Source: Psammoneis japonica (Eukaryota). From it: 64,000 bases of DNA. Both the position numbers and the translations under genes were made by a program. The notes under the pieces were generated by a model that made no database searches, was not told the DNA's origin, and worked only from the letters and a program-made list of their open reading frames with translations. Below, piece after piece: positions 5,991 to 36,540 of this stretch. The stretch covers positions 714,404 to 778,403 of the forward strand of contig QPGO01000001.1 in assembly GCA_008632985.1 (NCBI GenBank). The letters run 5' to 3'. Within the stretch, counting starts at the first letter, position 1, and every line of letters begins with the position of its first letter.

Positions 5991-6566
5991 GAGTGTCTGT
6001 GTCATCCTGCTGTTGTGTCAAATTGGTGTTTTATTCCGTAGTCTGGCCAAAAGGAGCAATTCAATGGCAAACTCTAGAAAGTTTTGGTGGTGGCGCGAAA
6101 GGTGGCGCGAAACGGCGCGTGAACAAAAAACATGTGGAAGCAGTGCCACGAGGTGTTTCCTCGTGGACAATTGTCGCTTGCCGGAGGAAGTGCCAGCTGG
6201 TGTATTTCCAGATAAGATCAAAGCCATTGGACAACATTTATGTGCTACATTCCTGGGTCAAGTTGGGTTTCTTCTCGTTGCTTGTTGCCGTGTCACTTTA
6301 CAACGTCTTGACCCACGCCGTGTTTTTTGCTTTGGCTGCTTCTCTGCTCGATCCGTCCGCGCCGCACCACGCCGAACAGCTTTTCCTGCAGGGTATGGCT
6401 AGTTGCTCATCACATCGAAACCAAACGTGCGCGACCAACTAGCCCTACCGCTCACACGCCACACCCGAAGATATAATATTTTTTGTTGCAATCAATCAGC
6501 GTAAGCTTATACAGTAAACAGTATATTGCTTTCATAACCACAGTCGGTACGAACGGCGCAACAACA

Positions 6567-7784
6567 ATGGCGAACAATGATGAAAGGGCACTCCTCAATT
6601 ATGTGCGCCAAAGAGACTGGACGAGAGCCATTGAATTGGTTGATGCAACAGGCTCCCAGGAAGAGCTTCGGAGACTCGCAACGGCAAGCGACCCTCAGAC
6701 CGGATGCGCACCAATTGACTTTGGCTGCGTCAACGTATCCCCAAGGGCGGAGCGTTTCGTTGCTGCTCTGTTGAGCAGAATGCCGTCCATCGCAAGCGTT
6801 CGCAATGCGAATGCTGAGATTCCGTTGATTCATGCGATTCGTAGAAGCTCGGTGGCTGTTGTTCGAATGTTGCTGGAAGCAATGCTCCAGTCCGGTTTGC
6901 AGACTGAGAATGGGCCAGATGCAACAAAGCTTGTTACGTGCAGATCTATTAACCCACACACCGGCGCGGCCTCCAAATGCAAGTTGAATGCTTTGGCACT
7001 GTTGTGCTCGTGCACTCAAAATCGCAAGAAAATGAGACAAGCATGCCGTCGCATCGAAACTGGGGAAAGTACTCTTGCAAGCATTGCAGCAAATGCCCTC
7101 GGTGATGAGAGTCGCGACTTGAACAATGATTTTTTCGAGAGGCTGACGCTTGTGCTAAAAGCGTTTTACCACAGGTCGATTGCAGACACTTTTTTGTCTG
7201 ACGGAAAGGCATTCAGACTGTTGCACGCGTGTTGTGGGATCGAACACTGTCCACCAAGTCTACTACAACTTGCAATTGTAGGAAATCGTGATCAAATGAA
7301 AGAGATGGACGAGGATGGCAACATGCCCATCCATGTTGCTGCATCTGCTTCTTTCGTCAAGCACACTTGTGAAAGTCCTTTGTGTTGTTGTTCCACTTTT
7401 AAGATGAATGACGCGGCCCTTGCAACAAGGGCGGCACTGCGATGTGGTACTCTGAAAGCAACGATGCAGACACTAGTGAGAGTAAAGCCTGATGTTGCTA
7501 AGGAATCAAACCGAGATGGCAAGCTGCCTTTGCACTTAGCAATCGAAAGCGGCCGAGAATGGGATGAGGGCGTTGACACTCTGGTCAACGCTCATCCGGC
7601 TTTGCTTACAGTCCAAGACCAGAACGGACTCTTTCCATTCATGCTTGCCGCTACTGAAAATACGTCACCCTTGACGGTTGTATACAAGCTCTTCCGCATG
7701 AACCCTGAACCCAAAATCTATGACACTAGCGTCGCCACAGTGAAAGAAGGCGTTGCTCCTCCACCTCTCAAACGGTTAAAATGA
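6567..7784 (+). CDS. Ankyrin-repeat-like protein
   Basis: Open 405-codon frame from ATG 6567. Motifs DEDGNMPIHVAA, NRDGKLPLHLAIESG, DQNGLFPFMLAA and LTVVYKLFRMNP; basic C-terminus PPPLKRLK. Normal dinucleotide content. Confidence 0.85.
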   Translation: MANNDERALLNYVRQRDWTRAIELVDATGSQEELRRLATASDPQTGCAPIDFGCVNVSPRAERFVAALLSRMPSIASVRNANAEIPLIHAIRRSSVAVVRMLLEAMLQSGLQTENGPDATKLVTCRSINPHTGAASKCKLNALALLCSCTQNRKKMRQACRRIETGESTLASIAANALGDESRDLNNDFFERLTLVLKAFYHRSIADTFLSDGKAFRLLHACCGIEHCPPSLLQLAIVGNRDQMKEMDEDGNMPIHVAASASFVKHTCESPLCCCSTFKMNDAALATRAALRCGTLKATMQTLVRVKPDVAKESNRDGKLPLHLAIESGREWDEGVDTLVNAHPALLTVQDQNGLFPFMLAATENTSPLTVVYKLFRMNPEPKIYDTSVATVKEGVAPPPLKRLK

Positions 7785-8702
7785 CACAGTCCTTGATTTC
7801 GACGGTTGTCGTGAAGGTCTCATTGCAGTGTCCGTACAATTGCAGGGCAAATCTCACGATACTATTGTGTGCCTGGTGACTGTTTTGGATTAGAATAGTT
7901 TGGATGTCGATGAGATCTGGGACATCTGTTGAATACGCTCTCAGGGTTGTACCTGCTCTCTCTTTTAGTCAGTATGACATTGCCTTGGCTGCTGCTTCTT
8001 CTGCGGACAGGGACAAATGATAGTCGCAAACGCAACATATTCCTTGAGTATATGGATATCTAAGGATTGGGTTGGCAATCGTATTTTGAGTTTCCTCTTC
8101 ATGAATTCGTCATGGCTCATATTTGTAACTGTCCATTTTGGAGTGCGGTAGTTGTATTCTGGTTTCAGCTTGCAGCCCATCATTATCTATCCTTGTCATG
8201 GTAGCCACAATCTTTCTTCTCGGCCCGTGCTGGTTCAACTACTTTACCTACCGAGTTTGCCAAGTAATCGGCTTCGTTCCTTCGAGTGGCATACAATATA
8301 AGCCCACTGTAATTTGAGGAGTCTTCATTGGTGTTTACATTTCACAAGGAAAATGAGATGAAAGAGCCATCAACGGTCGTTTTGAGCTCGCTGCATGTTC
8401 CTACAATATCCACGTCCCGGGTACTATGACAAACCTGGATGAAGTCTCCCTTTCGTTCTTTCTTTTTTTTTTTTGCACTCAAGTAGTGAGCGACGTGAAA
8501 CCAGAACAAGTAGCTATTGACTGTATCAATGAACTTTTCCGCGCAAATTAAGGAGCCCAAAGCCTGCAACACTGGCTCTGTTCCTTTCGAAATGGATTGA
8601 GTTTGAATGTCTAAAATGATTTGAGATAATTTATATCTATACACAGAGCGTATTGAGTGAGAAGAGGGTCCTCGTATATACTCTACAACTTCACAATCTT
8701 CT

Positions 8703-8745
8703 GTAGCTACTCTCTACTCTAGCTACTAGAGAGTAGAGTAGCTAC
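8703..8745. repeat. Imperfect palindrome built from CTA/TAG units
   Basis: GTAGCTACTCTCTACTCTAG-CTA-CTAGAGAGTAGAGTAGCTAC; the arms are near reverse complements. Lies ~20 bp upstream of ATG 8767. Confidence 0.6.
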
Positions 8746-8909
8746 CGGTAGAGTAGAGAGAGGGCAATGGCTGTAAGGCGGGTCGTCGCATTTCCACCAT
8801 CACCCACGACTGACGCCGCGCTTTACAACCTCCTCGTAGAGAAAGCAAATACTGCATTGACAATCTGCATAGAAAAGTGAACTACTTTTACTACCGCGAC
8901 ACTTTTACA

Positions 8910-9782
8910 GAATTGAACAAAATAGAGAAAGCAAAATTGGCAACCATGATTGCAGCGGAAAAGCATGTCTTGGAGCAACCGGACCAGGACAAAGTCAGAA
9001 TACTCGTAATTTGAATGGGAGATCCGAAAGCACAAGCAGCCCTGTTTGAAGGGATACGACAACGGTATGGACGGTTCGAGAGAGTCGAATCAACTTCAGC
9101 CTCTATTACCAAATATAGGTACTTGTACATGATTGATGGCGTTGAGCTTGAGTTTCTCGACGTGTCTCGTTTGTGTGCAAGTCAATCGAACGGCGACTGG
9201 ACCAAGTATCTAGCAAACAGGGACGCGGCCTTGTTCATTGCAGACTTAGCCGACTATCATGAATATTGTGATTCCTGCAAAGAGTGCAATGATAAAAAGC
9301 CAGCAAAAAAGAATCGAACGGGGCGCGCCTTGGAGAGTTGGGCGAGACTGTGCAATTCAACAGAAGCAAAAGGGATTTCCAAAATCCTCATACTGAATCA
9401 AAAGGAGGCGTTTGCGGAAAAGATACTGTCGACTGACATTCAAGATCAGGGACCATTCAGGGACTTTGCAGGGAAACCAAAAAACTTTGAACAGGGAGTC
9501 CGGTACTTCGTCAAAAAGTTCAAAGACTGATGTGAAGACTGCCAACGTTCCAACTTGTTCATTCGTGTGACTTCTCCGCACGACAGCGCCAACTCGGAAT
9601 TCATACTTGAATGTATCGGAGCCATCATCATTATTGAAAATTTACAAAGATCTGGGTTGCTGGATGGTTCAGCAGACACTGCGTCTGTTGCGCTCAGAGT
9701 CAAGAACTGGCTTCGAAAGGCTGAACATCGAATGATGCATCGAGCTTTCGTCACGCGTTCTTTTCCTTCAGTAGCGCGATAG
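8910..9782 (+). pseudogene. Divergent heterotrimeric G-protein alpha-like sequence with two in-frame TGA stops
   Basis: KVRILVI*MG, LEFLDV..W..Y, ALFIADLADYHE, KNR..AL, SKILILNQKEAFAEKI, VRYFVKKF and LFIRVTSPHDSANSEFILECIGAIIIIENLQRSG occur in the G-alpha motif order. Stops at 9012-9014 and 9528-9530. No helical domain. Confidence 0.7.
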
Positions 9783-10679
9783 TTTATACTTCTACCAACA
9801 AAATACATTTCGATACCCGAGCCAACGCAGAAGTTTCCTGAAAAGACAACAGGATGGAAGAAATAATGTGAGAGAAAGGACTTTGCTGTTCTGGTGCACC
9901 GGTTGATCAACAAAAGATGTTTCCACCCATCAGAGAGAAAGTATGTTCTTTTCATCGTAATCCACCAAGTCCAAAAACTTGTACCACGTATCCAACTCCC
10001 TGTGCAAAGGTTTTTGTCTTCGTCATGTGGGCTGGTGCGTCAGTACAACTCGCGAGAACAACGACTATACGCACAACTTACAAAGTGATTTCATGATCTC
10101 CCTGTATGGTACACTCGCAGGGAGAACAAAACCTTTAGCGATGAGATGAAAGGATATGACAAGCAACTGGTGAACCTCACTGTATCTTGTCTATCCGTTC
10201 AGCGTAAAATACCTCCTTAGGTATCCATCAAACGCGTACCTATATCTCGAAGTTTCTCCTGGAACATGGGTAGCGCCCGCACGGACGCCCCTCAAGCCTC
10301 TCGTGTCTTTCAGCAGAGCGGTTCGATTGCCTTTTCGGACCCACAAATCACCGTCATGTCTGACTGCGTTGGCAGCAGCAGAAAGAAGCCCAGCCATCCA
10401 TCTGCTGCGGCAGTTGGCGCCGCCATGGTTTAGTTTTTCAGAATGAGATGCGGCATGAAACAGGTGGAAATCAAAAGATTCCTGATTCCACCTGCTCCGT
10501 TCGCCCGACCCATGACTGGATGATCGCGGGTGACAAACAAAAACAAGAATCAATCATCTCAAAGCAAGGATCGTAGCGCGAACCCCAACCCAACCTGGCA
10601 GCAAGAAGAAAAAGTGTTGCACACAGTGTAGCAAACGTGAACTTCATCACCGACGTAATGCAACATTTTATGAAAATGA

Positions 10680-11139: not shown

Positions 11140-12775
11140 TTGTGGAAGCTGTCATTTTGCTCCACTGTGGTTGTTGCTTCTGCTTTAAGATTGACTTTTC
11201 ATGTGAGGCAAATTTTTTTGCTCTTGCCATTGCTGCTGCTTTTGCTCACCAACCAAACACCTTTTTTTTGTGCTTGGTGCATGGTGCATGCGGGCTCTGG
11301 CAAAACTGCACACATGGAAAATGTGGTGGGTGTTGCTGGGGCAATGAGAGCACTGCATTCTGCCATTTCTCTCTTTCTGCTTGCAGTGCAAAAGCAGTGC
11401 AAGTTTTTGTTCTTCTTGCACTGCATCAGTCCATTTTTCCCAACAACTTTGAAGACAGCACCCCGCTCAAGGAGAGCCAACAAGGCTCAGTTTCACCCAG
11501 GGAAGTGGGCAACCTGCTGCCACTGTGGCAAACACCCAAAGCAATCAAAAAAAGATGCACAAATGACACAGAAACATCAGCTCCAGTTGAAATGCCAGTT
11601 GTGCTGTGAGTGCCCCCCCCCCCNNNNNNNNNNNNNNNNNNNNNNNNNNNNNNNNNNNNNNNNNNNNNNNNNNNNNNNNNNNNNNNNNNNNNNNNNNNNN
11701 TGTTTTTTTCTTTTGAGCCAGCCCCAAACCCATCAGGAGCAACAAGACTTCCAGGAAACTTTTGCAGGTTTATGTCAGAGTGAAGTCAGCTTGTCAGGGA
11801 ACAAAGCAAGAGCCGCCGTCCTCACAGCACAAAAAAGAAGACAAAAGTGTGGCAAAAAACATGAGCATCAGCAAGTCAGCCATTTTGGAGCGGCCACAAG
11901 TGTGGCCTGCAGACACAGCTGTCCTTTCAAAACAGGCCACAATTTTTGTGCATGATTTCTTTTGGAGTCAAATGCTCAGCAACACACAGGCTTCAAGAAG
12001 CTTTGCCAATGCTCTTTGTCTGGGTCAAATTGTTGCGTGCAAAGCAAGAGCTGCCGCGCACCACTTGTTGGTGAAGCGCGATGCACCACACCACACATGC
12101 CCCAGCATGCACGGCAACACACAATTGCATCTGCTCCCTGGTGCCATTTTTTAGAGAGTGGGCATTTGTTTGGAGTTGCGCAGCACGTGGGTGAGCAAGT
12201 GCTGTTGTTGGTGCAACAACACAATGGGCATGCGTGACAAGGGTACGGGTGACGGACGGACTGCCCGATTGCCTCAGAGGTGAGAGTGCGCCCGCCTGAC
12301 ATCGACACGAAAGCATCACCGCAGCAGCACCATGACACGACACAAACAATGCCACAGCAATAGAATGCAACCTCCAACAAGAGGCAGAGCAATGGACTCA
12401 CTTTGTTGCTGACATGCTGGTGGACCTGTGATGACCTTGAGTGACAAGAGGCCATCCGAACCCTCGTGTCAGTGCTGACGTCAATGCCATTCTCATCGCT
12501 CACACCTTTGTGTCACGCACACACCACCATGCACGATCAGAAACATGCCAGAGTCTGTGTAGATTCTACGACGGAGTGACTGTGTGAAAGAGAGAGGTGT
12601 CACTTTGGCCATGAGAACCCCACTTCCCGCCATTCATTTCTTACGAGAGCTGTCACAAATGTTCTACAAGGCGTCACGGCATGACTGAGCATCGCGAAAA
12701 CAGCCAAATCAACTTTCATCCTTCGCATGTCATTTCTGCTTTTGCAAAAGAACAACAACAGCATTCATTGTCACC
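11140..12775 (+). repeat. Duplicated upstream block of the propeller gene family (copy A; paralogous to ~24100-25380 and, reverse-complemented, ~49940-50410)
   Basis: Shared strings include aacctcc(a/g)caagaggcagagcaatgg, atccgaaccctcgtgtcagtgctgacgtcaat, ggagcaacaagactt and cagcacacaggcttcaag. Confidence 0.85.
11624..11700. other. Assembly gap (N run) after a poly-C tract
   Basis: 77 Ns. The flanks align to the paralogous block at ~24465-24580. Confidence 0.99.
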
Positions 12776-12829
12776 ATGAACCGTTCCAACAAGAAAGTGA
12801 CCCCCAGCAAGCACAGTGACTGCGACACA

Positions 12830-14620
12830 CCCCCCATGCCCCTGCTGCACTGCCACACAACATCGCCCGTGCAGCGCAACGAGCAATGCAACCTCCCGCC
12901 GCGACGCTGTGGATCACGCCATTGTTGTCCTTGTTGGCCGCTCCTCACTCACGCAGAAACCCTGCCACAACCTGCGTGCCGACACACATCACACCCACCA
13001 TCACACCCATCACACGCAGAAATCCCACCACGTTCTACGCTCCCGACACCACCATCATGATGACCGAAAACGCCCACCATGACGCAACTGGACGCGTTCC
13101 AGCCCCAGGTGGGACTCCGTGTGACATTGGGCCCGTAGAATTCTACGTGCGAGCTCCGTAGTGCAAGAATTTAACCAATGGACACATTCATCTTCAACAT
13201 CAAATAAACTGCCAAGTTTGTGGTGCAATCATGCCTCTTGCCACTCGACGTTTTTGCAAATGCACCTGCCCCACGCGATTCTTAAGACATTGTAGAATCG
13301 CGCTGTGACAAAAAATGTCAAAAGTTTTTGGACGGATCGCTCAATGAGTGCACCGTAAAATGACACAAAATGTCAAAAAATCACGTAGAATTCTACGTGC
13401 GCAACATGCGACGAGATTCAAAAAACCATCGATGTCACAGTTCAGCAGTGCGAGGTCCCACCTAGACCTGGAACGCGTCACCGCGTCCTCCCTCGACGCA
13501 TTTACCCTCCTCAACGACAACTCCTGCACCGACTCCGACTCTGACCCCGAAACTAATGAGTCAATCTTCGACACTGCGGACACCACCGACGCAGCATCCG
13601 CTCCCCACTCCCATCCGATCACGACATGCCTTGGGCCGACACCTCCATTGCTGCACCCCTCAACCCTGCAGACGACACCAAGCATGAATCCATCGACTGC
13701 CGCCGAGTCTCCTCCATCAAAATCAAGGACATTGCCCCGCCAGACGCGCCCCACCCCCAACCCGGATTTTGACGAATCTCAGTGCAGAAGCCGTCACGTC
13801 GTCACTCAGCATCAGCTTCTCACAGTGCTGCGCAAGCAGGCCACTGAACACCACCACACAGCCTTCCAGGACCTCCGCACCCGCATTGACACCCTGCAAG
13901 CCCAAATCCAAGCACAACACCCAACCGCATGTCTTGTTGGCAACCTCGCACCCGGCATCCTACCCCCACGAGCGATGCCTGGCACCTGCACGCACGCTCT
14001 TCCCTTTGCCGCCTCTCACCAACTGCGCCTCTCCTCCTCTTCCCTGTTTTCACAGGCCTGACAATTGGTGGGCACTGGTCCACACTAACTCGCCTCCGCC
14101 CCCTGCCCAACGGCGCGGTGCGATCACAACCCTCTTCCATTTTGTTGCACTTGCCCCTGCCACTGCCCGGCGCACGCGACAGGCAACGCGCCGGGTGGCA
14201 ATTTGTTGGAACCCTCACTGTCCCTCGGACCTGGCCAGACATGTGACCAACAATGTGGCAGGGATCAGCAGTGCCAGGGGACACGGACATCGCGCCTTCG
14301 GCGCGATGCGCCAGAAAACCTGGGGGGCCTCGCTGTGCAATGCAGCCCCAGGTTCCCTGCCATTCTTGAGACGACAGGGCGGGGTGACATTTGAGGAGCC
14401 CGTCCTGGGCACAACGTCCCGGGGACCTTTTCTGGACCTCAGCGGGCGCCCTTGACCATGCGCATCAAGGGCGCTGACTGCCTGCAGGAGACCAGGTTTT
14501 GGCCACATGGTGGCCCTCTGGAGGTGACACATGCTTTCGTGGTTGCTGGGGCCCCTGGCATGAACCAGGGAGAGCACAAAGGATGCTGCCGCCTCAGCCT
14601 GCTTAAAATAGATCCCACAC
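12830..14620. mobile_element. Unclassified insertion interrupting propeller copy 1
   Basis: Sequence absent from paralogous copy 2 between the matching flanks. Bounded by CA-rich runs; contains a nested MITE and a GC-rich hairpin. Confidence 0.6.
13091..13479 (+). mobile_element. MITE, GACGCGTT-TIR family
   Basis: TIRs GACGCGTTCCAGCCCCAGGTGGGA / TCCCACCTAGACCTGGAACGCGTC; flanks ACTG/ACCG (4-bp TSD with one CpG transition). Confidence 0.85.
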
Positions 14621-15264
14621 ACACACACACCTGTTGTGGTGACGAGGAAGCCGCGTGCGGTGTGGACAAGGCTTTGACTCCCCGCCATGTTGCTCATCGC
14701 CGCCAACAACAACGAGAGGAAGCATTGGAGACGGCTCCAAGTGCCGGTGCAGTCGCTGGAGCTTTTGCTGTTGGTCTCGGAGGACAGGAAGTTCAGCGTG
14801 GACGGGATGCTGACAATGTCACCCCAATGACAGCACCCGAAACAACACCGCCGATGCCTCAACCACTGCAGCCTCCCACTGCCAATGAGCCTCCCACACT
14901 CGCTGAAGCGCACTTGGCCGAACCGACAGAAGATGTGGAGGATTTGCAAGCACAAATGAATCAGATGCGACAACAAATCGCGCGTCTTGAAAAATCGGCT
15001 CCCGCCGCACAACAGGCAGAGGTTGCTCAGGTGGTTTTAACAGTTCCCAATGATGAGGAGCAGAATGCAGAGTCCGCAGGTGACGACAATGAAACACCCA
15101 TTGACAACAACGACAACCACGAAGAGATGGACAACAAGCGTCGTCGTCGTTGCAAATGCTTGGTTGTCATGGGAGCGGCAGTGTTGGTGGTTGCGGCGAT
15201 TGTTGGAGCTGTCGTTGCTGTGCTGTCAGGAGGTGGGGGGGGAGAAAGCGCCACTCGACCTGCC

Positions 15265-15483
15265 ACAGTTGCTCCCGCCACCCCATCTCCTACAGTGGCC
15301 CCCGCCACTCCGGCTGCTGCAGTTGCTCCCGCCACCCCATCTCCTGCAGTTGCTCCCGCCACTCCGCCTGCTACAGTTGCTCCCACCACTCCGGCTGCTG
15401 CAGTGGCTCCCACCACTCCGGCTGCTGCAGTGGCTCCCGCCACTCCGGCTGCTACAGTTGCTCCTGCCACTCCATCTCCCTCT
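15265..15483 (+). repeat. 27-bp coding tandem repeat, 8 units ((T/A)VAPATPxx stalk)
   Basis: TVAPATPSP TVAPATPAA AVAPATPSP AVAPATPPA TVAPTTPAA AVAPTTPAA AVAPATPAA TVAPATPSP; copy 2 has a single unit. Confidence 0.9.
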
Positions 15484-18219
15484 CCAATCATTGCACTTCC
15501 AAACGGTCCGTGGAATCCTGTCGACCAAGTCTTGCATGGCAAAGCTACAAGTGATCGTTTGGGCAATTCCGCACCCTTGTCTCGTGATGGCAGTGCCATG
15601 GCTGTTGGAGCAAATCAACGGTTATCTTCTTCCACTCTCCCCGGCTGTGTTGTTGTGCAATGATGCAACCCAAGCACCCAACAATGGGAACAAATTGGCC
15701 AAGAATTGATTGGACAAACGGACGGCGACCTTTTAGGAGATTCTGTTTCATTGGATGGCGACGGCACAATTCTTGTGGTTGGAGATCCATGGAATGACCA
15801 TGGCGGAACAAATGCCGGTCGTGTTCATGTGTTTGAATGCAACTCGGCATCGGATCTTTGGGGCCAACTCGGCAGCGACATTCTTGGACAGGACGCTGGT
15901 GGTTGGTTTGGTGCTTCTGTGTCGCTCTCGGACGTGGGAGACATTCTTGCCGCGGGAGCGCATCAGGATGACACGGAAAATGGCGTGAATTCTGGATCGG
16001 TTCGATTGTTTCAATTCGACCACGGATCCTCATCCTGGAACCAACTCGGACAAACACTCATCGGCCAAGCCTTCAATGATTGTTTTGGGTTTTCCGTCAC
16101 CTTGAATGCGCAGGGAACCATTGTCGGTGCTGGAGTGCATTTAAATGATTTGGGTGGAGACAATGTGGGTCAAGTGTCGGCACATGAACACAGTTCTGCC
16201 TCATCAACATGGAATCTGTTGGGTGATCCAATCAATGGACAAGTCAAATGTGGTTATCTTGGATTTTCTGTTTCTCTTGATGACAGCAGTTTGACAGCAG
16301 CCGTGGGGGCACCTCGAGAAGACAAGAGGGTTTTGCTTTATTCACATGACCACTCGACTTTGACATGGAATCAACGTGGCCAAACTCTCATGACACAACA
16401 GTCTGGTGATGATTTTAGATGGTCAGTGCCATTGAGTGGCAATGGAAACATCTTGGCAGTCGGAAGTCGGTTGCATGACATCAATGGATTGGATGAAGCA
16501 GGTCAAGTTCGAATCTTTCAGCACAACAGCAATGCAGGCAAATGGAAGCAAGTTGGAGATGCCACAAATGGCAAGGCTGATGGTGATCATTTTGGATGTT
16601 CCGTGTCCTTGTCGGCCGACGGAAGCGTCGTTGGAGTTGGCGCGAGTTGGGCTGATGTCAATGGTGGCAATTCGGGATCTGCACACGCATTCACAGCAAA
16701 TGACAAGCAGAAATGTATTTTGCATTTCATCCTCTTGTGTCACTCTCCATCGTGAGTCTGTGCGTCGACCGTTCTTCGTGCGCGCTCGCACGCACACGAA
16801 GGTCTCCTCATAGACTCTCATGGAAGTCAGACGGACAGTTTGTTACGATGCCTCCGGAATCCCCGCATGTTTCTGCATGTGCAAAAAACTTTTCTATGGA
16901 GAATTCTACACGAAACATGCCAGGAGGGCACGGCAACAAATTGCCTGCATGCGACCCTGGTGCATCATCCGTCTTGCTTCCGCGAGAGTCCATGAGGAGA
17001 CTTCGGGTGTGCGCGCACACGACAATGGTTGATGCACAGACTCACGATGGAGAGTGCTCTTGTGCCGCATCAATCACACTGTGTTTTTCTGGTTCTTGTG
17101 CATCGTGTCATCGTGTGCTTCCACCGCTCATTGAAAAAAAAAACAGGTCTGTCTGTCTCTCCACTTTTTGAGTCGTGCCATCCAAACACGAATCATCATC
17201 GCCTCTCGTTGAATTTCCATGATGGCAAAAACAAAAATCGCAACAACAACAAACAACATCAATGACAATGGCAACAATGACCACTGCATTTGAAGGACTG
17301 TTGCCTCGTGAGTGCACTCTGTCATTGTTGTGTTTGTTGTTGTGGACATTCTGCGATTGACTTTTGCACTGTTTTTCATGAGTCAAAGTCAATGCCGACT
17401 GACCGTGAAAATCATTGACACACTGCTGCTGCCATGTGCACCATGTCATTGTTGCAGACACACACATGCTCATGCTCACTCTCTCTTTCCCGCCACTGAC
17501 AACAGCGAAAAGGAAGGACAGTGTGTTGGAGGTTGGAGGTGGAAATGTCAACTGAGCAGCGCGGGAAAGCTCAGCTGCTGCCACCACTGCTGCTGTTGCA
17601 AACAGCAACAACAACAAAAGCTGCAATGATCTTGGAGGATGTTGATGTAAGAAGGGTTTGTTGAGCTGAATCAAAAAAGTCTGTCTGTCTTCCAACCCCT
17701 CCTGAATTGTCATCATTGCCTCTTGTTGAAAACAGCAAACAACCGCGCTGCTTGCATGACAACAATGGTGACCTCTTTGGCCTCCCACCCCCCATGACAA
17801 CACCACATGCGCATTCAGGCCTGGCCTTCCCACCCACCGCCAGCCCCCACCATGCCATGCTCCATTTTGTGCACCTTTTGGCCACCCTGTCCACCGCTGT
17901 TGGTGTCATCATCAAAAGTCTTTGCCCACTCCCACCATCACTGCCTCTCCCCCATCCTCAATCCTCACCTGTTGCCAACTGCAATTTCCACCCCATTTGC
18001 CACAACTGGAACAACTGCCCCATCTGTGCCACCTGCTGTCCTGCCTTTCTTTGCAAGGTCAAACAAGATGAAAACTTCAGCGACAAAGTGCAATGGCTCC
18101 CTCTCATGTCTGACACAATCACCAGCACCACATGTCAGAATGAACAGGGTGTGCAACACTGCACTCTTCCCTTCCATGACTTGAATCCTGAGAATCATGA
18201 GAGATTCAAAAATTCATGT

Positions 18220-21200
18220 TTCAGCTCAGTTTCCATGAGAGGAGCACAAGGGAAACCCAGGTGTTGGGGAGAAAACCCTCAACCTCAAATCTGACATGAT
18301 GGCATGGGCACCAAATGCCAATGCGTTCCACAACATGAGGTGCACATTGAACTTCAATGGTGCCGTTGGTGTGTGCACTTGAACAATGGGGTGGGAACCA
18401 CAAGCTGATGCTGGTTTGAGCTTGGTTGGATCAATCATTTTGAGAAGCACTTTTGTCCGCCAACCTGAAAGTCACAGGGTTGGCATTTGGCATTTGCACT
18501 GCACAGGTTTGCATTGACAAGAGCTTGGCAATGTTCTTGACCAGCGCCAGAAGATCTGGCTTCACATTGCATTGAGCGCCATTTTGCTCCAGGTGGCATC
18601 TTGAGAGCACGGGATGCCGCACATCACATGGCATGCACAGATGTGGCCAGAGTGGAGGGCGTGCATGAAGCAAAGTGCACAAGACATTGCCAACAATTTT
18701 TTGGTGCATGCATTTGCACGCTGCATTGGACTGTGCATTCCATGAGGTGCCAGGTGCATCATCAACTCCCGCTCTTTGTAGAAGCAATTGAAACTACTCT
18801 CCTGTAAATTTTTCACCACCATTGTCATGGATGCAACAGTCAGGTTGAAGACAACAACACAAGCAACAATTTTCAAATTGTCAAGCAACATGAGGTGAAG
18901 TTTTGTTTTCATTTCAGCAACATTTGACACCATGTCAACACAGGTCAACACATTGAGTTCAATCTCTTGGCCTTGGGTGTCAATCTTTCAACAAGATCAA
19001 CCGCTGCTTCAGACCAAGGCAGTGAAGATGCTGCACTTTCAGGCAAGTTTCCATGTCCAGGGCCCAAAGTTTTCAAACATTGACAATCAGCACAATGAGG
19101 TTCTTCACACACATGGCACAGTGCAGGATGATGAAAATGTGCGCCAACAGTGGAATGCATTTGATGCACCCCTGCATGTCCAAATCATGTTCAGCAATGC
19201 CATTGCATCATGTCAGGCAACAATGCAGCAGGAGTGCAGATTTTCCACAAAGTTGGAGGATCATTTGGCTGAGCCCGGTGACAAATCACAGGATGCTGAT
19301 TTACACATTCCACAACAAAATGATTCAGACTCTGTTGGCTGACACATGTTGTTCAACTCCATGTCAAAATTTGTGTTCCTGGATCTGTTGAACAGTGGCA
19401 GGATTTTGCATCTCGTCAAGGGATGGACAGTCCAGAAGCAAATCAAACAGCTCTGGATCATTCACAAAAGAAGAACAAAAGTGAGAAGGTTCTTCATGTT
19501 GACAGGCAAAATGACACACTGGACTTTGCTCGTCAGGCTCCTCTTCTTCTTCATGAGGTGGCATGGCAGCATCAATTGCCTCAAAATCTGTTAAATTGCT
19601 TTTGTTGGGAGCACACTTCCCTTTTGCAGGATTGTCCATGCAAGGCAATTGGGTGAAACAATCAGCCAGTGCATTTTCTTTGCCATCAATGTGCTCAAAT
19701 GCAGGTGCCAAAAAAATCCAAGAAGAGTTGCCACCTGAGTGCACATTGAGAATTGAGTGCGCAAAAGGCGAGGTTGTTGTGATTGGTGAAAACAGCACAA
19801 TTGCCTCCAAGCAGCATTGTGCAAAATTCCTTGAAGCACATCGCCACCACCAGAAGCTTTTTTCAATGGCAGAACAATTCTGCTGTGCCAAACTGAGTTT
19901 CTGCTGGGAGCAATGTGCAATTGGTTTTACTTTTTGGGCAATCACTGCACCCATTTGGCAGTCACAAGAGTCAGTGAAAATGTGGAAGGGTTTGTTGTGA
20001 TTGAGACAGGCCCAAAAAGTGTCATCCAAGAACGTTCCGGCATCCACGCCAATGTTCCCTTGCCTGTTGGCTTCATGAGAGGAGCGAGTGTGTGTGAGAG
20101 TGATGTGACCACAAAAGAGCACAGTTGCATCATGCTCCGCAGAGGTTGCACTCATGGCACAGCATCAACTTTTTATTCCATGGCTGAACTCCTCCTGTTG
20201 GTGCAAGCCAATGGCCCAGAAAATCAGTCTCTTGGACACACCACTTGTGGAGTTTGAGCAGATTGACCTTGAGATCATTCTCTTGTTCTAGTCTGATTGA
20301 CAACTTGTGTCAAGATGATGCATGTGTGCACAAAACAAATCATCAAATTGAACAATGTCATCAATGTGAGCCTCAACATCAAGGCCATTTGCCACTTTCT
20401 CAATGACAGCTTGAGCAATGTCTGGAGATGTTTTCAATCCCATCACAAGACAACAGCATCAAAATTTGCCCCAAGTGGGGTGACAACAGTGCAGGGGTCC
20501 TTGGGCTCTTTGTTTGAGCTTGACATGGCAGCAGAACATGGGTGAGGTCCAATTTGGTCCAATGTTTGCATCTTGAGCGGCAATGAATCATGTCTTGAAC
20601 AGCAGGCAGAGGACAAAATCTTGTGTTTGAGGAGTTTGTTCAACTGACCATCCTTTTTGGGTGCAACAAAGGCTCCAACTGCCCATTCTGTTGGACAACC
20701 CACTGGTTTCAATGCTGACGGGCTCCAGTCCTGGGTGGGACTCTGTGTGACATTGGGCTCACAGAGTTCTTCGTGCAAGCTCTGTGGCCAAGAACTCAAT
20801 TGATGGACATTTTAATCTTCAGCAACATGAAATGAACTGCCAATTTTGCAGTGCATTTGCACCTGTCCACACTCAATGTGTTTGAAAATCTGCCTGCCTT
20901 GTGCCATTCTTAACTCCAATTGCATCAGATGCCCTGTTTGAGGCCCACATGTGGGCCATAAAAACATGTGGCCCACACATGGGCCACAATTTTTTCAAAT
21001 CTTCTTCAACAACAGAGATGATCAATGAAAAGACCCCACAGTCAAATTCTCCACACCTGAAAACACAGGTGTTGACACTTCAGCTGTTGAAAAAGTCCCA
21101 CTGTTTGTTGTCATGGCCTCTAAAATGTGCTTGCTTTGTGTGCAATTTTTTGCTGATTTCTCCCTCCACCATGGCGGACCCTGCGGCTGGCCCCACTGGT

Positions 21201-23520
21201 GAAGGACATTCACTCCAGCAATCTCGGATGCCTGACAACATCATCAGGAAAATGTCAGATGTGTCAGAATTGCTTGCAGCAGGAACAGACATGCCTTTTT
21301 TGCCTGTTCAAGACATGCCTCAAAACCCGGAATTGCACTCTGCTGCCAAAGCACCCTCTGTTCCCATGCATGCCACCCATCCAAGTCTTCCTGTGGAACC
21401 ACCAGTGGCCAAGAGAGCTCAGGTGCAATTCAGCTTTGCCAAACACAAAGTTCACTGTGTTTCTGACATGAATGGCCAGTGCTTGCATCCTCAATGCCAG
21501 CTGCTGCACTCCACTGTGGAAAGCATCGCTGGCATCAACAAGGGTGGAGTCAGCTGTCTGTCTCATTTTTGGTGCACAAGGCAGTGCAACAAAGACAGGC
21601 CAGACAAATTCCAAGTGGGCTTCATTGTGCTGGGTGCTGGTAGATGCCCTTCAGCATTTTGTTCTCTGTGTGGTCAACTGTTGCATCCATTTTAGAGCAT
21701 CAGGCTGAGAACAGACACACGGATGAATTTTTGTTCTGTCAGTGCAAATGGGGTGCAAAGAGATGCACTGTTGAGTTGCTTTGCTGGGAGAGCAAGGCAA
21801 GTCCAATTTTAAGTGAAACAAGCACACAAAGATGGGGCACACTTTTAGCAGCCTCAGTGTGCATGCAGCACAAGCACATGTCACCTTCTGACAATCATTT
21901 GCACAGTGCAGGAGGTCCAGCAACTGTTCTCACAGTGTCAAGAACCACTCCATTTCAGACTTGGCAACAAAAGATCTGAGAACTTTTTTCACATTTCCTC
22001 TGCACCTGTTTGTGCTTCTTGTCCCATTGGCCCACTCATTTGATGTCTGCCCAAAATGTGCAAATGCAAGTGACAAACCAACTGAGCACCATCCAAGCCA
22101 TTGTTGTTGACAATGAGCTTTGGGAGTTGCTGCCACCTGTTTGTCTTCAGTGGCTTTCACATTCATCTCTTTGTGTTCTTCTTCCTCATCCTCTGCACCT
22201 TCATGTGCTGTCGTTTCTTCCTTGGCCACTTTGGGCTTGTCACCCTCTTCTTGCTCATGGCTCGTGGCTGCTGCTCAAGTCATTGCCAGCTGCTGCATGT
22301 TTGTCCTCAATGTTGCTTTCATCAGCTGAGCCAATTGTCTTGTCTGGAACAAACGCACATTGTTGGACATTGTGTCATCCTCTTCTGAAGAGCTCATTGC
22401 TCAAAACAGACACAACATTGATGTTTCCCATCAAAATGGCAAAAAGATGACCTTTGTTTTAAGAATTGTGGCCAATTTGTGCCCCACACGTGGGTCACAA
22501 AAATTTGCAATCAGAATTTTGCAGCACAGATGCGGGCCACAAAATTGCACTTCAGGCGTCTGATGCAATTGGTGTCAAGACATTTGTGAATGGCATGGCA
22601 CAGAAGAAAAAAATGTAAAAGTTTCACTGCACAATGATGCAAAATTTGACCAAAGTCAGGCAGATGTGTGCATGTGCAACATGTGGTGAGATCCAAAAAA
22701 ACCCATTGATGTCACAGTTCAGTGGCATGAGGTCCCACCCAGAGCTGGAACACATCTGCTTTGACATTGCAAAGATGCTTCACTTTTTTCTTGAACAATG
22801 CTTCATCATTCTTTGACACTTCACAGGCTCAAGAGTGGAAGGGAAAAGCATTGGGATCAACTTCCAACTTCCAAATGAACAGCTTCATGCAGACATTTTG
22901 CTGAATGTGCCATCAAAAAGAGGTTCATGCCTTTCAAGCATTGCTTGCAGTTTGTTGCTCTGCTCAGGGGCTGGATGAGTTTGAGCTTGTGCTGCCCTTT
23001 CTGTCGAAACTTTTTTGCACTTGGTGTCCAACATGCAGCTCTTGCCCAACAGCTCTTCTTCAAATTTGTTGCTGTCCTCATGGTCGTCAAGCACATCCAA
23101 CCAACTCTGCACTCAATTCCAATGATCAGACTGGTGCTTCATTGGGATCAACACATCAAACCACTTGTTGATGACTCCAAATCAAGAACAGAGTGCCTTT
23201 CCTGCTGTCGCCAAAAAATCTTGACCTAAAATCACATCAAGTTTTTGGACTTGCAGTGTGCTGAGGGGGGGAAATGGCACTCAGCGCTTGCAAAGTGGAC
23301 AAAAAGAGCAAAAAATGATCAAATTTTGTGTGCTGTGCATTGCATTTGACTGTCACAAAAAGCTTGCTTGTGGCATGCAAAGGAGGTTTCTCCAGTGTTG
23401 ACATTGTGCCACCACATCAAAAAATCTTTCTTGAGCCACCAACTCATCAAAAAAATGTTCTTTGCTGCTGTGAGCACAGTGCTCTGACCAGAGCCAGTGC
23501 AGCTCTCTCCAAAAAGCTTT
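18220..23520 (-). mobile_element. Decayed Ty3/Gypsy pol (RT, RNase H, integrase)
   Basis: LERHEPLFDGT; TEWAVGAFVAPKKDG; RNase H KPFHIFTDSCDCQMGAVIAQKVKPIAHCSQQKLSLAQQNCSAIEK and HIDGKENALADCFTQLP; integrase NAQSNAACKCMHQKIVGNVLCTLL and HTNGTIEVQ...VVERIGI. Domain order RT-RH-IN. Confidence 0.9.
20717..22756 (+). mobile_element. 2-kb old copy of the GACGCGTT-TIR DNA transposon nested in the Gypsy RT
   Basis: Left end GACGGGCTCCAGTCCTGGGTGGGACTCTGTGTGACATTGGG and right end GGTCCCACCCAGAGCTGGAACACATC align with the 13091 MITE; exact 4-bp TSD TGCT (20713-16, 22757-60). Confidence 0.85.
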
Positions 23521-24099
23521 GAATGGAGTCATGGTCTCTCACACAGCTCCTTGCCCAACTGCTTCTGTGATGGCATTGTCGGCAACATTGTGCCATGTGA
23601 AGCAATGATGGTGCTGCAATGAAAACAACTTGGCCCACCCTCATTCTGACCCCCAGCAACCTCTTGCAATCAAAGGTGCGTTGAGATGGGCTCATCTCAT
23701 CCTGCTGTGCTCAACAGAGCAAGTGTGAGAGCTTCCACCCTCTGTCATTCAGTCATGTCAGTCATGACCCCAAGCATGGCATTGAGGAGGGTTGGGCAGG
23801 ACATTTTTGTTGTCTCCACTTCCTCCCACATCATGACAAGAACACTGGTTGACTTGGATTCCAGAGTGTTGGCAGAGCTCCAGTTGAAAAGTCATTTTGT
23901 CTCTGTCTCAAGCACAATTGAAGAGAAATCTTCTAGACATCATCCAGTGTGAAAGCAGCCATGCTGAGGGGTTGGGAGTTGGGCATGCCAGCACTGCTTT
24001 GAGGGTCACTTGGTCACAAGTTTTACCTTCACATGATGCAATGGTGGGTGCTGCCAGCCAGTGCATCAGGGGCAGCACCAATGCCCTTGCATGGGCTCA

Positions 24100-25380
24100 G
24101 GAATGGCCAGTTGTTGCCTTCACTTCTGCTGTGATTGCAGCTTTTGCTTTGAGAATGTTTTCTCATTTGAGGCAAACTTCTTTTGCTCTGGCCATTGCCA
24201 CTGCTTTTGCTGCCTGTCCTCACACACATTTTTTCTTCACGCATCAAGAGAAAAACACCCCAGACATTGTGCGGGCTCTGACAACTGCCCATTGTGGCTG
24301 GTCATCACACAAAAGAGCAAATCAAAATTGCTCTTCTTGTGATGCAACAGCTCATTTTTCTCAACAACTTAATGACAACAAAAGTGACAACCCCCACTGC
24401 CATGGTGTGGCAAACGCCCCCCCAAGCAACCAAAAAATGGCAAATTTTGAATCAACATGAGCTGCTCCAGTTGAAGTGCTGGTTGTGCTTCAAGCAGGTT
24501 CCGAAAGCTGCCAAGGCTGAAAATCAAGTCGACACACACTCCCCAGTCCCAAACCCAACAGGAGCAACAAGACTTCTTCCAGGAAACTGCTGCAGGTTTG
24601 TGGCAGAGTGCATCTGTGAAAACAGCTCATCAGGGAACAGAGCAAGCACGGCAGCTCATGCAAGGAGAGACATCAGGCAACAACAAACACACAAGTTTGT
24701 TTTGTTGGATCAGCTGCGATGGGCCACAATTGTGGCCTGCAGACACCGCTCTCTCCCACTCTCAAAACAGCCACAACTTGCGCGCACATTTTTTTGATCC
24801 AAACACTCAGCAGCACACAGGCTTCAAGCTTCACCAACAAACCCTTTGTCCTCTGGGTCAAATTGCATGAGAAGCAAGCACACACTTCTTTTTTAAGAGA
24901 GTGGAGTGCGTTTGTTTGGAGTTGCGCAACAAGCATGTGGGTGAGTTGGGGCGCGATTGCCACTGAGAAAGTTCGCCCGCCTGACATCGACTCGCGTGCA
25001 GCGCCGCAGCAAGCAGCAACACCATGATGGATGATCATGACACAGGCAATCAAAACAACAACTCACTCTCACGCCACAACGACAGAACGCAACCTCCAGC
25101 AAGAGGCAGAGCAATGGGCTCACATCATTGCTGACATGCTAGACCTGTGACGACTTTGACGGCCGGCTATCCGAACCCTCGTGTCAGTGCTGACGTCAAT
25201 CCCGTTCTCATCGCTCACTCGTGTCACACACCACCATCAATGCACGATGAGAAACATGGCAGAGTCTGTGCAGTACAAGAGCTGTCGTAGATTATATGGT
25301 GCCAACTGCAGGGATCGTGCAAAAGGGTGAATCGACTTCTCATAGTTCTCTCATACTTTTCAGCAACATTCATCATCATT
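24100..25380 (+). repeat. Duplicated upstream block of the propeller family (copy B)
   Basis: Colinear with 11140-12775. Confidence 0.85.
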
Positions 25381-27393
25381 TTGAACCTTTCTAACAACAA
25401 CAAAAAGATTCCTTACAAGTTCAGCGACGACGACGACATGTGCGACAGAGGTGGTGCTAGTCGTGGTAACTTGATGAATGATCGAGACGAAGAAATAAAA
25501 CAAGAGATTGAAGAATTACGCGAATCTACACCTGCACTATCGACGAGGAAGCTGCGTGCAGCACGGAGAAGAGTTTGACTCACCACCATTTTGCTCATCA
25601 CCTTCAACATCAGCAACAACAAGAGGAAGCATTGGAGATGGTTCCAAAAGCTTCTGCAGTCGCTGGAGCTTTTGTCGTCGGTCAAGGAGGACAGGAAGAT
25701 CAACGAGGACGGGATGCTGACAACAGTGCCCTCATGACGGCACCTGAAACGGTACCACCAATACCTCAACAACAGCAGCCTGCCACTGCTGATGGCCCTC
25801 CTGTGCTTGCTGAAGCGCATTTGGACGAACCAAGAGAAGGCATGGAGGATTTTCAGGCACATGTGACTCAAATGCAGCAACAAATCGTGCATCTTCCACA
25901 ATCGGTTCCCACAACACAACAACTAGAGGTCGGTCAGTCTGTGTTAACGGTTTTCAATGGGGAGGAGCACAATGCAGAGTCTGCAGGCGACAACGACGAC
26001 AGCAACGAAGAGATCGGCAGCAAGCGTGGTCGTTGCAAACTTTTGGTTGTTTTGGGGGCTGGAGTGTTGATTGTTGCTGCGATCGTTGGAGCTGTTGTTG
26101 GAGTGACATCAGGAGGCAGTGGAGGAGGAAGTGGCACTCAATCTGCTACAGTGGCTCCCGCTACTCCAGCTCCTTCTCCAATCATTGTGCCTCTAAACGG
26201 ACCATGGAATCCCGTTGGTCAAGTCTTGCACGGCAAAGCGGAAGGTGATAATTTTGGCAGTTCGGTGTCCTTGTCTCGTGATGGCAGTGTCATGGCTGTT
26301 GGAGCAGGTCAATTTCCTCGCAATCCCGGCTATGTTGTTGTGCAGCGATACGATCCAAATACCCAACAATGGAAACAAATCGGCCAAGAATTGGTTGGGC
26401 AAGCCGCCGGTGACAATTTTGGAGGGTCTGTTTCGTTAAATGGCGGCGGCACAGTTCTTGCTGTTGGAGCTGTTCATAATGACAGTGGGGGGGGGGGGGG
26501 GAGATGCTGGTCACGTTCGGGTGTTTGCGTATGACTCTGTATCGGATCGTTGGGTTCAACTCGGTAGTGACATTCTTGGAAACAGATTTGATCAATTCGG
26601 TATTTCTGTGTCGCTCTCGGACGCGGGAGACATTCTTGCAGCAGGCGAACACGGTGACTTTGCTAATTCGGTTCGATTGTTCCAATACAACCATGACACT
26701 TCATCCTGGAAGCAACTCGGTCAGACTCTGACTGGTGAAGCTGCATATGATGGTTTTGGCTATTCCGTTTCCTTGAGTCAATTGGGAACCATTGTTGGCA
26801 TTGGAGCATACAGCAGTTCTCACTCGGGATATTCGGGTGGAAACTATGATGGCCAAGTGTCGGTGTATGAATACAGTTCTGCATTGTCAACATGGGAGCT
26901 GCTGGGTTTTCCAATCAATGGGCAAATTGTTGGTGGTCACTTTGGATGGTCTGTTTCTCTTGATGACAGTGGTTTGATCTTGGCCGTGGGTGCTTATCAA
27001 AGCGAGAGAGCTTTGGTTTATGCATACGATCGTTCTACGTTGAAATGGAATCAACGTGGCCAAACTCTACTCACGCAACAGCTCCATGATGATTTTGGTT
27101 GGTCAGTGTCGTTGAGCGGCAATGGAAACGTCTTGGCTGTTGGAAGTCCTCGTTTGCATGCCGTTAATGGATTGAACAATGCCGGTCAAGTTCTAATCTT
27201 TCAATATGACACCACCACGTCCAAATGGAATCAAGTCGGAGATTCTTTAAACGGTGAGGCTCAAGATGACAAATTCGGAGATTCCGTGTCCTTGTCATCG
27301 GATGGAAGCGTTGTTGGAGTTGGTGCTAGGCAGACCGACGACAATGGCGAGGATTCAGGATCCGCATATGCATTCGCGGTAAAAAACAATTAG
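25381..27393 (+). pseudogene. FG-GAP-like beta-propeller membrane protein, copy 2 (normal composition; frameshifted as assembled)
   Basis: Same architecture as copy 1 with Tyr codons intact; stop TAG at 27391. Frameshift in a G15 run (26487-26501) and a further apparent frameshift near 25535. Could be intact from the ATG at ~25638 if the G run is a sequencing error. Confidence 0.8.
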
Positions 27394-27789
27394 ATCTGCA
27401 GTTCTATATTTCATCCTTTTGCATCAATCATACTGCATTTCAAGCCACTCACAGCGACAAAATGGGACGATTGCAGATGTATTCGTTATCTCCAGAGGTG
27501 TCATGGTTAGGAGCAGTTGTAGATGCTGACGTCTTTTTGGTATTATTGGATGAGGAAGCTTGGTCCATATAAGCTCGACTCGCCATTCATTTCAGGGAAG
27601 AGCCATTGTCTGGAAGCCACTGGAGGACTAGCCTTCTGTGCAAGGCGGCTGCATCAACGGCGCGTCAGCTTGACATTGCCTTCCTCGATCGATTGCGTTC
27701 TCCTCTGGGAATGAATTTTTGTGGCTGTCGTATGTCCTTAGCATGACGTGAATGGAATAACCACCACGAGTAAAATTCAAACCATTCAA

Positions 27790-27920
27790 TGTACCCCATC
27801 GACCAAATGGAATCAAGTTTCCGTGTGAGCTGATGGGACTTACGTTGGCTTTTATTCTTGATCCATGTATTACTTCATGGTAAACAACAATTATAAATGT
27901 ATTTTGTATTTCATCCATTT
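27790..27920 (+). pseudogene. Deleted relic of another propeller gene 3' end and UTR
   Basis: aaatggaatcaagt...tccgtg...ggcttttattcttgatccatgtattacttcatggtaaacaacaattataaatgtattttgtatttcatcc matches the last codons and 3' UTR of copy 3. Confidence 0.65.
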
Positions 27921-28073
27921 CGTGTGTCGTTTGTGCCGATTTGTAACATGTATTCAAATATATCCCATTTGTTGCAGCAGCGGCAACGAGCACAAGGGTT
28001 GGGAGTAAATACAACTCCTAGAGTAGTGTCCAAAGAACTCACATTCACATTAGTTATACAGTATCAACACAGT

Positions 28074-36474: not shown

Positions 36475-36540
36475 CTCCAAAGTTCTTTGGTCAATCCGAA
36501 GTCGAATCTGTTTCTGTGACTCCTCAAGCAAACTGGGGAG

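Follow-up and report, generated by a model that had tools for sequence, protein, structure and literature searches.

Regional loss of TpA around a decayed FG-GAP_2 gene copy in a contig of Psammoneis japonica

The locus and the decay of copy 1

The DNA analyzed here is a stretch of 64 kb from contig QPGO01000001.1 of Psammoneis japonica (assembly GCA_008632985.1, positions 714,404 to 778,403), hereafter the window, and all positions below are window coordinates. Five paralogues of one gene lie within it, with pairwise identities of 73–80% (Table 1). One of them, copy 1, has lost nearly all of the TpA dinucleotides that its relatives share, and it sits in a block of DNA that is itself almost free of TpA. 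The C-terminal 400 residues common to the copies match FG-GAP_2 (PF14312) with 95–105 bits against a Pfam gathering cut-off of 23 (102 bits for the C-terminal part of copy 1, 95 bits for copy 3, and 105 bits for copy 4). Copies 1 and 2 also have an N-terminal part in common, which contains a stalk rich in Pro, Ala, and Thr as well as a hydrophobic stretch. The family is one of FG-GAP_2 beta-propeller surface proteins. The best database matches of the propeller are no more than 42% identical and are mostly proteins of Bacteroidota and marine metagenomes. The tree of the five copies is star-like and unrooted, with a branch of 0.167 for copy 1, branches of 0.13–0.24 for the others, and inner support values of 30 and 53.

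Several copies have peculiarities of their own. The reading frame of copy 2 shifts at a run of about 15 G (26487–26502; open reading frames (ORFs) 25638–26534 and 26440–27393), which is either a true frameshift or a homopolymer assembled at the wrong length. At the 3′ end of copy 4 (52805–53000) the last blade is short of 18 bases, the C-terminal tail is unrelated, and a TGA replaces the TAG of the family. The stalk of copy 1 holds a 27-base tandem repeat of at least seven units (15222–15491, Ala/Pro/Thr) that is longer than in copy 2. The repeat carries three of the 12 TpA left in copy 1, all of them in CTAC, and a fourth CTAC lies shortly 3′ of it at 15546.

Table 1. Features of the window discussed in the text, with the altered codons of copy 1 (obs/exp, observed/expected ratio; aa, amino acids).
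Feature	Position	Strand	Remarks
Copy 1	14628–16755	+	homology with copy 2 begins near 14628; FG-GAP_2 E = 1.8e-29 over 15664–16752
Copy 1, TGT (Cys)	15646–15648	+	TAT (Tyr) in three other copies; 5′ flank C; TpG outcome fits the TAY motif
Copy 1, in-frame TGA	15661–15663	+	CGA in copies 2 and 3, CGT (Arg) in copy 4; CpG transition
Copy 1, TGC (Cys)	15664–15666	+	TAC (Tyr) in three other copies
Copy 1, TGC (Cys) of VFEC	15838–15840	+	Tyr in copies 2, 4 and 5
Copy 1, TGT (Cys) of DCFG	16081–16083	+	TAT in copies 3 and 5; 5′ flank T; TpG outcome
Copy 1, CAT GAA CAC (H-E-H)	16183–16191	+	TAT GAA TAC (Y-E-Y) in copies 2 and 3
Copy 1, CAC (His), last blade	16684–16686	+	TAT (Tyr) in all four other copies
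Copy 1, CAG	16708–16710	+	TAG stop in copies 2, 3 and 5; 5′ flank G, bottom strand TAC
Copy 1, next in-frame stop TGA	16753–16755	+	15 codons beyond the lost stop
Copy 2	about 25530–27393	+	spared island; TAG stop; frame change at G run near 26487–26502
Copy 3	47431–49788	-	intact 785-aa ORF, Laminin_G_3 and FG-GAP_2; spared island; TAG stop
Copy 4	52805–54052	-	415-aa ORF; spared island; divergent 3′ end; TGA stop
Copy 5	63050–64000	-	cut by window end; spared island; TAG stop 63050–63052
TpA-erased block with copy 1	13751–25000		TpA obs/exp 0.05–0.08, one 250-base bin excepted
Retrotransposon remnant, RT_RNaseH_2	19367–20164	-	PF17919 E = 1.4e-7; TpA obs/exp 0.03, CpG 0.24
Spared island	5751–10500		ankyrin ORF and G-alpha fragment
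Spared island	25001–29250		copy 2 and Methyltransf_22 gene
Spared islands at copies 3, 4 and 5			with copy 2 island, TpA obs/exp 0.27–0.44
Spared island	57251–59500		unknown ORF

A preliminary description of this DNA had set the codons GGC TGT GTT GTT GTG CAA TGA TGC of copy 1 against GGC TAT GTT GTT GTG CAG CGA TAC of copy 2, and both strings are present as quoted, at 15643–15666 and 26328–26351. The same holds for the lost stop (copy 1 ends AAT GAC AAG CAG, and its last codon shares an alignment column with the TAG of copies 2, 3, and 5) and for the changes VFEY to VFEC, DYFG to DCFG, and VYEY to AHEH, all of which are visible in the protein alignment. The proposed read-through of 15 codons into the old untranslated region stands only as a property of the frame. 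The frame is indeed open to the TGA at 16753–16755, and the 15 codons past the lost stop align with the 3′ flank of copies 3 and 5, but the TGA upstream precludes a translated tail.

Copy 1 keeps a tyrosine in one of 14 family Tyr columns, and its FG motifs have become LG (twice) and FR (once). The private changes of copy 1 are spread almost evenly over the three codon positions (28/32/40). The in-frame TGA, the lost stop, the altered FG motifs, and this near-even spread identify copy 1 as a pseudogene. With its reading frame and its conserved aromatic and FG positions broken, it is not a functional member of the FG-GAP_2 family. There is no frameshift in about 2.1 kb despite the branch of 0.167, which fits a decay through point transitions.

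A majority among paralogues on an unrooted tree of five taxa leaves the root open, and we therefore used outgroups. Of 120 distant homologues (at most 42% identity), the 23 with a domain match over more than 300 profile positions were aligned and the other 97 were dropped. Fourteen columns have Tyr in at least two paralogues, and copy 1 has Tyr in one of these, Cys in four, His in five, Phe in two, Thr in one, and Asn in one. At eight of the 14 columns the commonest outgroup residues are Tyr, Trp, or Phe, and copy 1 reads C, C, F, H, H, Y, H, and H. Cys is never among the five commonest outgroup residues at those eight columns, and His is so once. Judged by the paralogue majority and by the residues of distant homologues, it is copy 1 that holds the derived state, in agreement with the preliminary description.

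Loss of TpA in copy 1 and across the window

Each copy was taken in turn as the focal one, and the retention of a dinucleotide was counted at sites where at least two other copies have it. These column-wise counts among the five copies, together with the outgroup residues, stand in for maximum-likelihood ancestral states. Copy 1 retains TpA at only one of 22 shared positions (nine have become CA, five TG, and seven something else), whereas copies 2–5 retain it at 10/14, 9/16, 8/18, and 7/13 (44–71%; pooled 34/61; Fisher p = 1.3e-5 for copy 1 against the others). For the 14 dinucleotides besides TpA and CpG, retention in copy 1 is 61–82%, within the range of the other copies. With 21 of 22 shared TpA gone, the changes private to copy 1 are far from even across dinucleotide contexts, and the even spread that would have refuted the preliminary description is not seen. 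Retention of AA, TT, and AT is normal, and GC-biased gene conversion was rejected on this ground. The propeller of copy 1 contains seven TpA (observed/expected 0.09) compared with 27–32 in copies 2–4 and 15 in copy 5, which is shorter because it is cut.

Private substitutions give the same picture. A base was counted as private if no other copy has it, provided that three or more of the others are aligned there and that no more than one of them dissents. The ratio of transitions to transversions is 69:31 in copy 1 and 59:56, 57:49, 38:46, and 22:23 in copies 2–5; with a stricter count in which all the others agree, copy 1 has 58:13. Transitions at TpA (16) or CpG (23) make up 39 of the 100 private changes of copy 1 but 59 of 350 in the others (p = 7.5e-6), a count that the preliminary description had called for. 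Private T>C changes before A number 13 in copy 1 and two to three in each of the others. In the N-terminal half, where copies 1 and 2 can be compared over 638 aligned positions, the seven TA of copy 2 correspond to CA (four), TG (two), and TA (one) in copy 1, and copy 1 has no TpA that is absent from copy 2.

The earlier proposal that TpA and CpG had both been hit in copy 1 survives for TpA, whose loss is specific to this copy, but the loss of CpG is not. Copy 1 retains 33/78 CpG (42%) and copy 2 retains 30/70 (43%), with 57–71% in copies 3–5. In the N-terminal half the loss is greater in copy 2, where CA or TG stands opposite a CG of copy 1 at 20 sites; the converse is seen at 11.

The loss of TpA extends well beyond the gene. 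Over the whole window the observed/expected ratios are 0.195 for TpA, 1.58 for CpA, 1.63 for TpG, and 0.55 for CpG. Blocks in which the TpA ratio is below 0.2 take up 42,000 of the 64,000 bases (66%), with a mean ratio of 0.07 for TpA and 1.72 for CpA. The remaining 22 kb are gene islands with TpA ratios of 0.26–0.54. Copy 1 lies inside an erased block together with a retrotransposon remnant 2.6 kb downstream of it, so a protein-coding member of a gene family has been hit and not transposable elements alone, as had been claimed. The four other paralogues lie in islands and serve as controls for the one in the erased block. The erased state continues unbroken beyond copy 1, through the non-homologous flank upstream of it and for kilobases on either side, and the exceptional bin of the block (15251–15500) falls within the 27-base tandem repeat array of copy 1. 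Block edges are sharp and track genes. Among the erased sequences we find the retroelement remnant, unannotated intergenic DNA, and one host gene copy; no viral hallmark was found among the 38 ORFs of the window that were scanned against Pfam.

The retention of TpA in the islands is more than codon selection. In the intact copy 3, 36 of 69 TpA fall outside Tyr and stop codons, and the stretch 8001–9000 has 64 TpA (observed/expected 0.79) although it contains a single ORF of at least 120 amino acids (8345–8713, without a Pfam match). The erasure of TpA and the loss of CpG are also separable, since several stretches that are erased for TpA (0–0.18) have CpG ratios of 0.64–0.99 (e.g., 4322–5679, 12689–13057, 16426–17168, and 54696–55796). 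In transposon-rich blocks the CpG ratio is 0.2–0.35, with a gain of TpG and CpA. TpA is low even in the spared islands (0.27–0.54; e.g., 25001–29250 and 47501–50750), and copies 4 and 5 have TA to CA changes of their own (four and three, respectively); the process may leak weakly into active genes.

Some further features of the mosaic deserve mention. Long ORFs that overlap in several frames and match no family abound in the erased blocks (e.g., 4322–5679, 17111–18291, and 40232–42671); the loss of TpA removes TAA and TAG and thereby creates long false ORFs. At 13130–13450, within the erased region, is a short element of normal TpA content that is bounded by a repeated 17-base word. Its word depth in the DNA run X1 is about 159,000 compared with about 60 in the flanks. 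It is a very high-copy repeat and probably a young one. Two direct repeats of about 290 bases (33405–33690 and 36540–36830), 94–97% identical, bracket an open frame of 626 codons (34594–36471) with 13 copies of a 42-base tandem repeat (35366–36121), and about four of their roughly 12 mutual differences are TA vs. CA or TG. In the spared island at 5751–10500, a partial-model match to the G-protein alpha subunit (9015–9527; PF00503, E = 8.8e-18) suggests part of a gene with introns, and a protein search for this fragment among longer proteins found nothing. The Methyltransf_22 neighbor of copy 2 has its best named match in the diatom Fragilaria crotonensis (58%), followed by other diatoms, and unnamed sequences match at up to 67%. 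An assembly gap of 77 N (11624–11700) lies within an erased block. Scans of the window with Rfam and for tRNAs gave no match.

A flank rule and the process behind it

The residual TpA in the erased blocks depend on their neighbors. For each pair of flanking bases x and y we computed xTAy/(xTAy + xCAy + xTGy) in erased blocks and in islands. TTAA has nearly the same share in both (41/671, 6.1%, and 19/276, 6.9%), whereas ATAT falls from 39/187 in the islands to 0/505 in the erased blocks, the flank pair A_C from 52/222 to 2/544, and G_T from 60/219 to 2/526. The heterogeneity among flanks in the erased blocks is significant (chi-square p = 1e-18). Counts agree within reverse-complement flank pairs (T_G 19 and C_A 15; G_A 13 and T_C 11; T_T 11 and A_A 7; C_T 4 and A_G 3), which points to a process that treats both strands alike. 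If the chance of a hit on either strand is made to depend on the base after A, with T about equal to C, then G, and A far behind, the model reproduces eight of the nine flank classes. The order of motifs is the same whether erased blocks are taken alone or relative to the islands. The motif is 5′-TAY-3′ (Y, pyrimidine), followed by TAG and, far behind, TAA, on the strand that bears the A, which is R-T-A (R, purine) on the opposite strand, and TTAA is left untouched.

The changes in copy 1 follow this rule. All nine TA to CA changes have a purine at −1, i.e., TAY on the bottom strand, including the change of AAG TAG to AAG CAG at the stop. Four of the five TA to TG changes have a pyrimidine at +1, and all three transitions with a pyrimidine at −1 gave TG. 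The 5′ flank of the codon at 16081–16083 is T, so the susceptible motif is present there on the top strand only. Tyrosine codons are TAY and hence direct targets, which makes tyrosine the vanishing residue. The split of copy 1 between TA to CA and TA to TG is 9:5, which is not significant (p = 0.42).

The TpA-specific loss, its direction, its regional mosaic, and the flank rule are shown by the sequence itself. We consider it likely that the DNA around copy 1 underwent a regional hypermutation from A:T to G:C, specific to TpA, symmetric between the strands, and with a TAY motif, and that copy 1 was destroyed in its course. On this reading the process turns TpA into CpA or TpG and leaves other dinucleotides alone. 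Copy 1 lies in a block of transposon-derived and intergenic DNA, with its four paralogues in spared gene islands. A hit on the coding strand of a Tyr codon gives Cys (TGY), and a hit on the opposite strand, for which a purine must precede the codon, gives His (CAY). A hit on the bottom strand of AAG TAG produced CAG and so removed the stop. The in-frame TGA is a separate and ordinary CpG transition. The enzyme is probably a DNA adenine deaminase, by analogy with known systems. In such a scheme adenine would be deaminated to inosine by a TadA/ADAT2-like deaminase aimed at silent or foreign chromatin, as was proposed for Bigelowiella natans (see below). By the same analogy, the role may be one of genome defense, with copy 1 as collateral damage.

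Several observations weigh against this interpretation. Seven of the 21 lost TpA of copy 1 are something other than single transitions, and the only shared TpA that it retains (16339, TTAT) has a susceptible motif on the top strand. The one-flank model under-predicts the residual CTAC and GTAG about three-fold (20/627 and 16/511); four of the residual CTAC lie in or just 3′ of the tandem repeat of copy 1. The island baseline for the motif is biased by codons. The silencing of copy 1 may have come before the mutations or after them. Finally, a strand-symmetric pattern does not distinguish the A of TAY from the complementary R-T-A, which would leave an identical trace in the sequence.

This last point opens the way to the strongest competitor, in which the same regional TpA process works through thymine, the T of R-T-A, for example, being oxidized or changed in some other way before it is mispaired or misrepaired to C. 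The coding strand of copy 1 has 13 T>C changes before A and only three A>G changes after T (binomial p = 0.02), as this chemistry would allow. Purines are common at −1, however, and the skew is largely due to such flanks, and sites susceptible on both strands split 7:2 by a hand count. The authors of the sole measured precedent read it as adenine deamination, which is itself a hypothesis. We regard thymine chemistry as unlikely, though it is the alternative to be taken most seriously.

That no special process is needed, and that copy 1 is simply an old pseudogene drifting under the ordinary mutation bias of the genome and the universal scarcity of TpA, is very improbable. The low TpA of the islands and the few TA to CA changes in copies 4 and 5 agree with it. 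The branch of copy 1, however, is no longer than those of the other copies and yet 95% of its shared TpA are lost, the 14 other dinucleotides bar CpG are kept as usual, and frameshifts are absent. Drift would also have to spare TTAA while removing every ATAT in the erased blocks, and to stop at sharp edges that follow genes.

A sequencing or assembly artefact has an equally slim chance. Modified bases at TpA and CpG of silent DNA could have been miscalled; the blocks do resemble silent and possibly modified DNA, and the library type of X1 is not on record. Against this, contigs of 31-mers from X1, at a depth of about 55–70, reproduce kilobases of erased DNA and the 5′ half of copy 1 with zero to two differences, although X1 is possibly the source data of the assembly and in that case is not independent of it, a point to be added to those listed above. 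This run contains 89% of the words sampled from 13000–22999. Its contigs have no other letter at 14551–15408, 16996–18172, and 19067–20235, one at each of 18150–19092, 23040–24013, and 25171–26234, and two at 23987–25198; this speaks for reads that are accurate and for a locus present in one copy. At 15647, 15661, and 16708 no alternative letter is listed, although the lack of an entry is not proof of identity. Contigs of a second run of the same sample, X2, match copy 2 exactly (25320–26239 and 26610–27380). X2 has no depth listed at 13602–15203, where the 5′ part of copy 1 lies, and next to none over the transposon block at 16806–24815, and it was not used as evidence, since missing cover proves nothing.

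The reverse polarity, with copy 1 ancestral and the other copies having gained TpA as in fungal repeat-induced point mutation (RIP; CpA to TpA), is hardly credible. The root may sit on the branch of copy 1 in an unrooted tree with such low inner support, but the distant homologues carry Tyr, Trp, or Phe rather than Cys at the columns tested, the in-frame stop and the broken FG motifs belong to copy 1, and its non-coding flanks are free of TpA as well. Equally far-fetched is an A-to-I hyperediting of RNA followed by reverse transcription, by which copy 1 and the transposons would be retro-copies of edited transcripts: a retroelement remnant does lie nearby and ADAR-type editing favors a U before the edited A (bioRxiv 10.64898/2026.01.13.699255), but the erased state continues over copy 1, its non-homologous upstream flank, and kilobases to either side without a break, the two strands are equally affected, and A is kept in other contexts.

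Returning to the hypermutation with a TAY motif, a broader proposal is that a diatom-like alga has a programmed defense that deaminates DNA adenine at 5′-TAY-3′, has cleared TpA from the greater part of the non-genic DNA, and kills host gene copies that fall into silent chromatin. We offer this tentatively, as something short of an even bet. If it were true, Tyr codons and TAG stops would be built-in targets of the defense. Taken together with the rhizarian B. natans, TpA hypermutation would be widespread and possibly an ancient counterpart of RIP in the stramenopile-alveolate-rhizarian (SAR) group, and the existence of a natural enzyme that deaminates DNA adenine at a defined motif would be indicated.

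Significance and comparison with known systems

A TpA-directed A:T to G:C mutational defense, opposite to RIP, is known from a single report, a 2026 preprint on two viral insertions in one chlorarachniophyte, B. natans (Mettrop et al., 2026; bioRxiv 10.64898/2026.01.13.699255). When we searched full texts for this signature, in diatoms and beyond, this preprint was the only one returned. It deals with giant-virus and virophage DNA that is integrated in the genome and hypermutated at TpA. Of the 302 nuclear point mutations recorded in mutation-accumulation lines, 231 fell in two integrated viral regions, in some lines only, at a rate about 1000-fold over background; 230 of the 231 were A>G or T>C, every one at TpA. 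As the cause, the authors suggest that an ADAT2-like enzyme deaminates adenine in DNA (Mettrop et al., 2026). The main text of the preprint does not mention flank context or diatoms, and its supplements may hold the former.

The window shows this signature in an algal lineage that is probably a different one. In both cases nearly all changes are A:T to G:C transitions from TpA to CpA or TpG. In copy 1, 14 of the 21 lost shared TpA became CA (nine) or TG (five), and in the N-terminal half six of seven did. Both are confined to certain regions (here 42 kb erased and 22 kb of islands), both have low TpA with high CpA and TpG in clustered 1-kb windows as the long-term signature, and the domains enriched in the TpA-poor coding sequences of B. 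natans are reverse transcriptase and DDE transposase (Mettrop et al., 2026).

The differences are as instructive. In B. natans the rate was measured in mutation-accumulation lines, whereas the window shows the end state only. The regions there are two viral insertions; here they are transposon-derived DNA, intergenic DNA, and a member of a host multigene family. The preprint counts 124 TpA-poor clusters in a callable genome of 85 Mb, compared with 66% of 64 kb here, and the TpA ratio of its viral region is 0.45, compared with about 0.07 here (Mettrop et al., 2026). CpG is also depleted in part of our blocks. The organism is a different one: the proteins of the window are at most 67% identical to any match, and the best named match is a diatom. 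The window thus stands apart from the one known case in its host lineage, in its targets, in how deep the erasure goes, and in the flank rule of TAY over TAG over TAA derived here.

The depth of erasure is far greater in the window, where two thirds of the region are affected. The process has reached host genes, in that Tyr codons and a TAG stop were wiped from one family member, with four sister copies as internal controls. The flank rule, with its immunity of TTAA, is a concrete biochemical prediction for the enzyme, and builders of base editors would have an interest in a natural DNA adenine deaminase whose motif is defined. The long false ORFs in erased DNA, from which TAA and TAG are lost, can mislead gene prediction.

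RIP of ascomycetes is similar in that a regional burst of transitions at a single dinucleotide degrades transposons, can kill nearby or duplicated host genes, and leaves a mosaic in which mutated blocks alternate with spared genes. Unlike the process seen here, it converts CpA to TpA and so enriches TpA, whereas in the window TpA is erased and CpA and TpG are enriched. RIP also needs near-identical duplicates; the four spared paralogues are 73–80% identical, and a former, closer twin of copy 1 is possible. The decay of CpG through 5-methylcytosine in silenced transposons resembles the depletion of CpG with a gain of TpG and CpA in the transposon-rich blocks, and the change of CGA to TGA in copy 1. 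It does not explain the loss of TpA, and the retention of CpG in copy 1 is about that in copy 2.

The adenine deaminases TadA, ADAT2-3, and ADAR are known mainly as RNA editors, and all target an A after U or T, as the process in the window would. The target of ADAT, A34, follows the invariant U33 of the tRNA. ADAR is reported to prefer a G after the edited A, which conflicts with the preference for a pyrimidine found here. The natural substrate of TadA is U-A-C, and early adenine base editors preferred Y-A-C. This preference resembles the TAY motif of the erased blocks.

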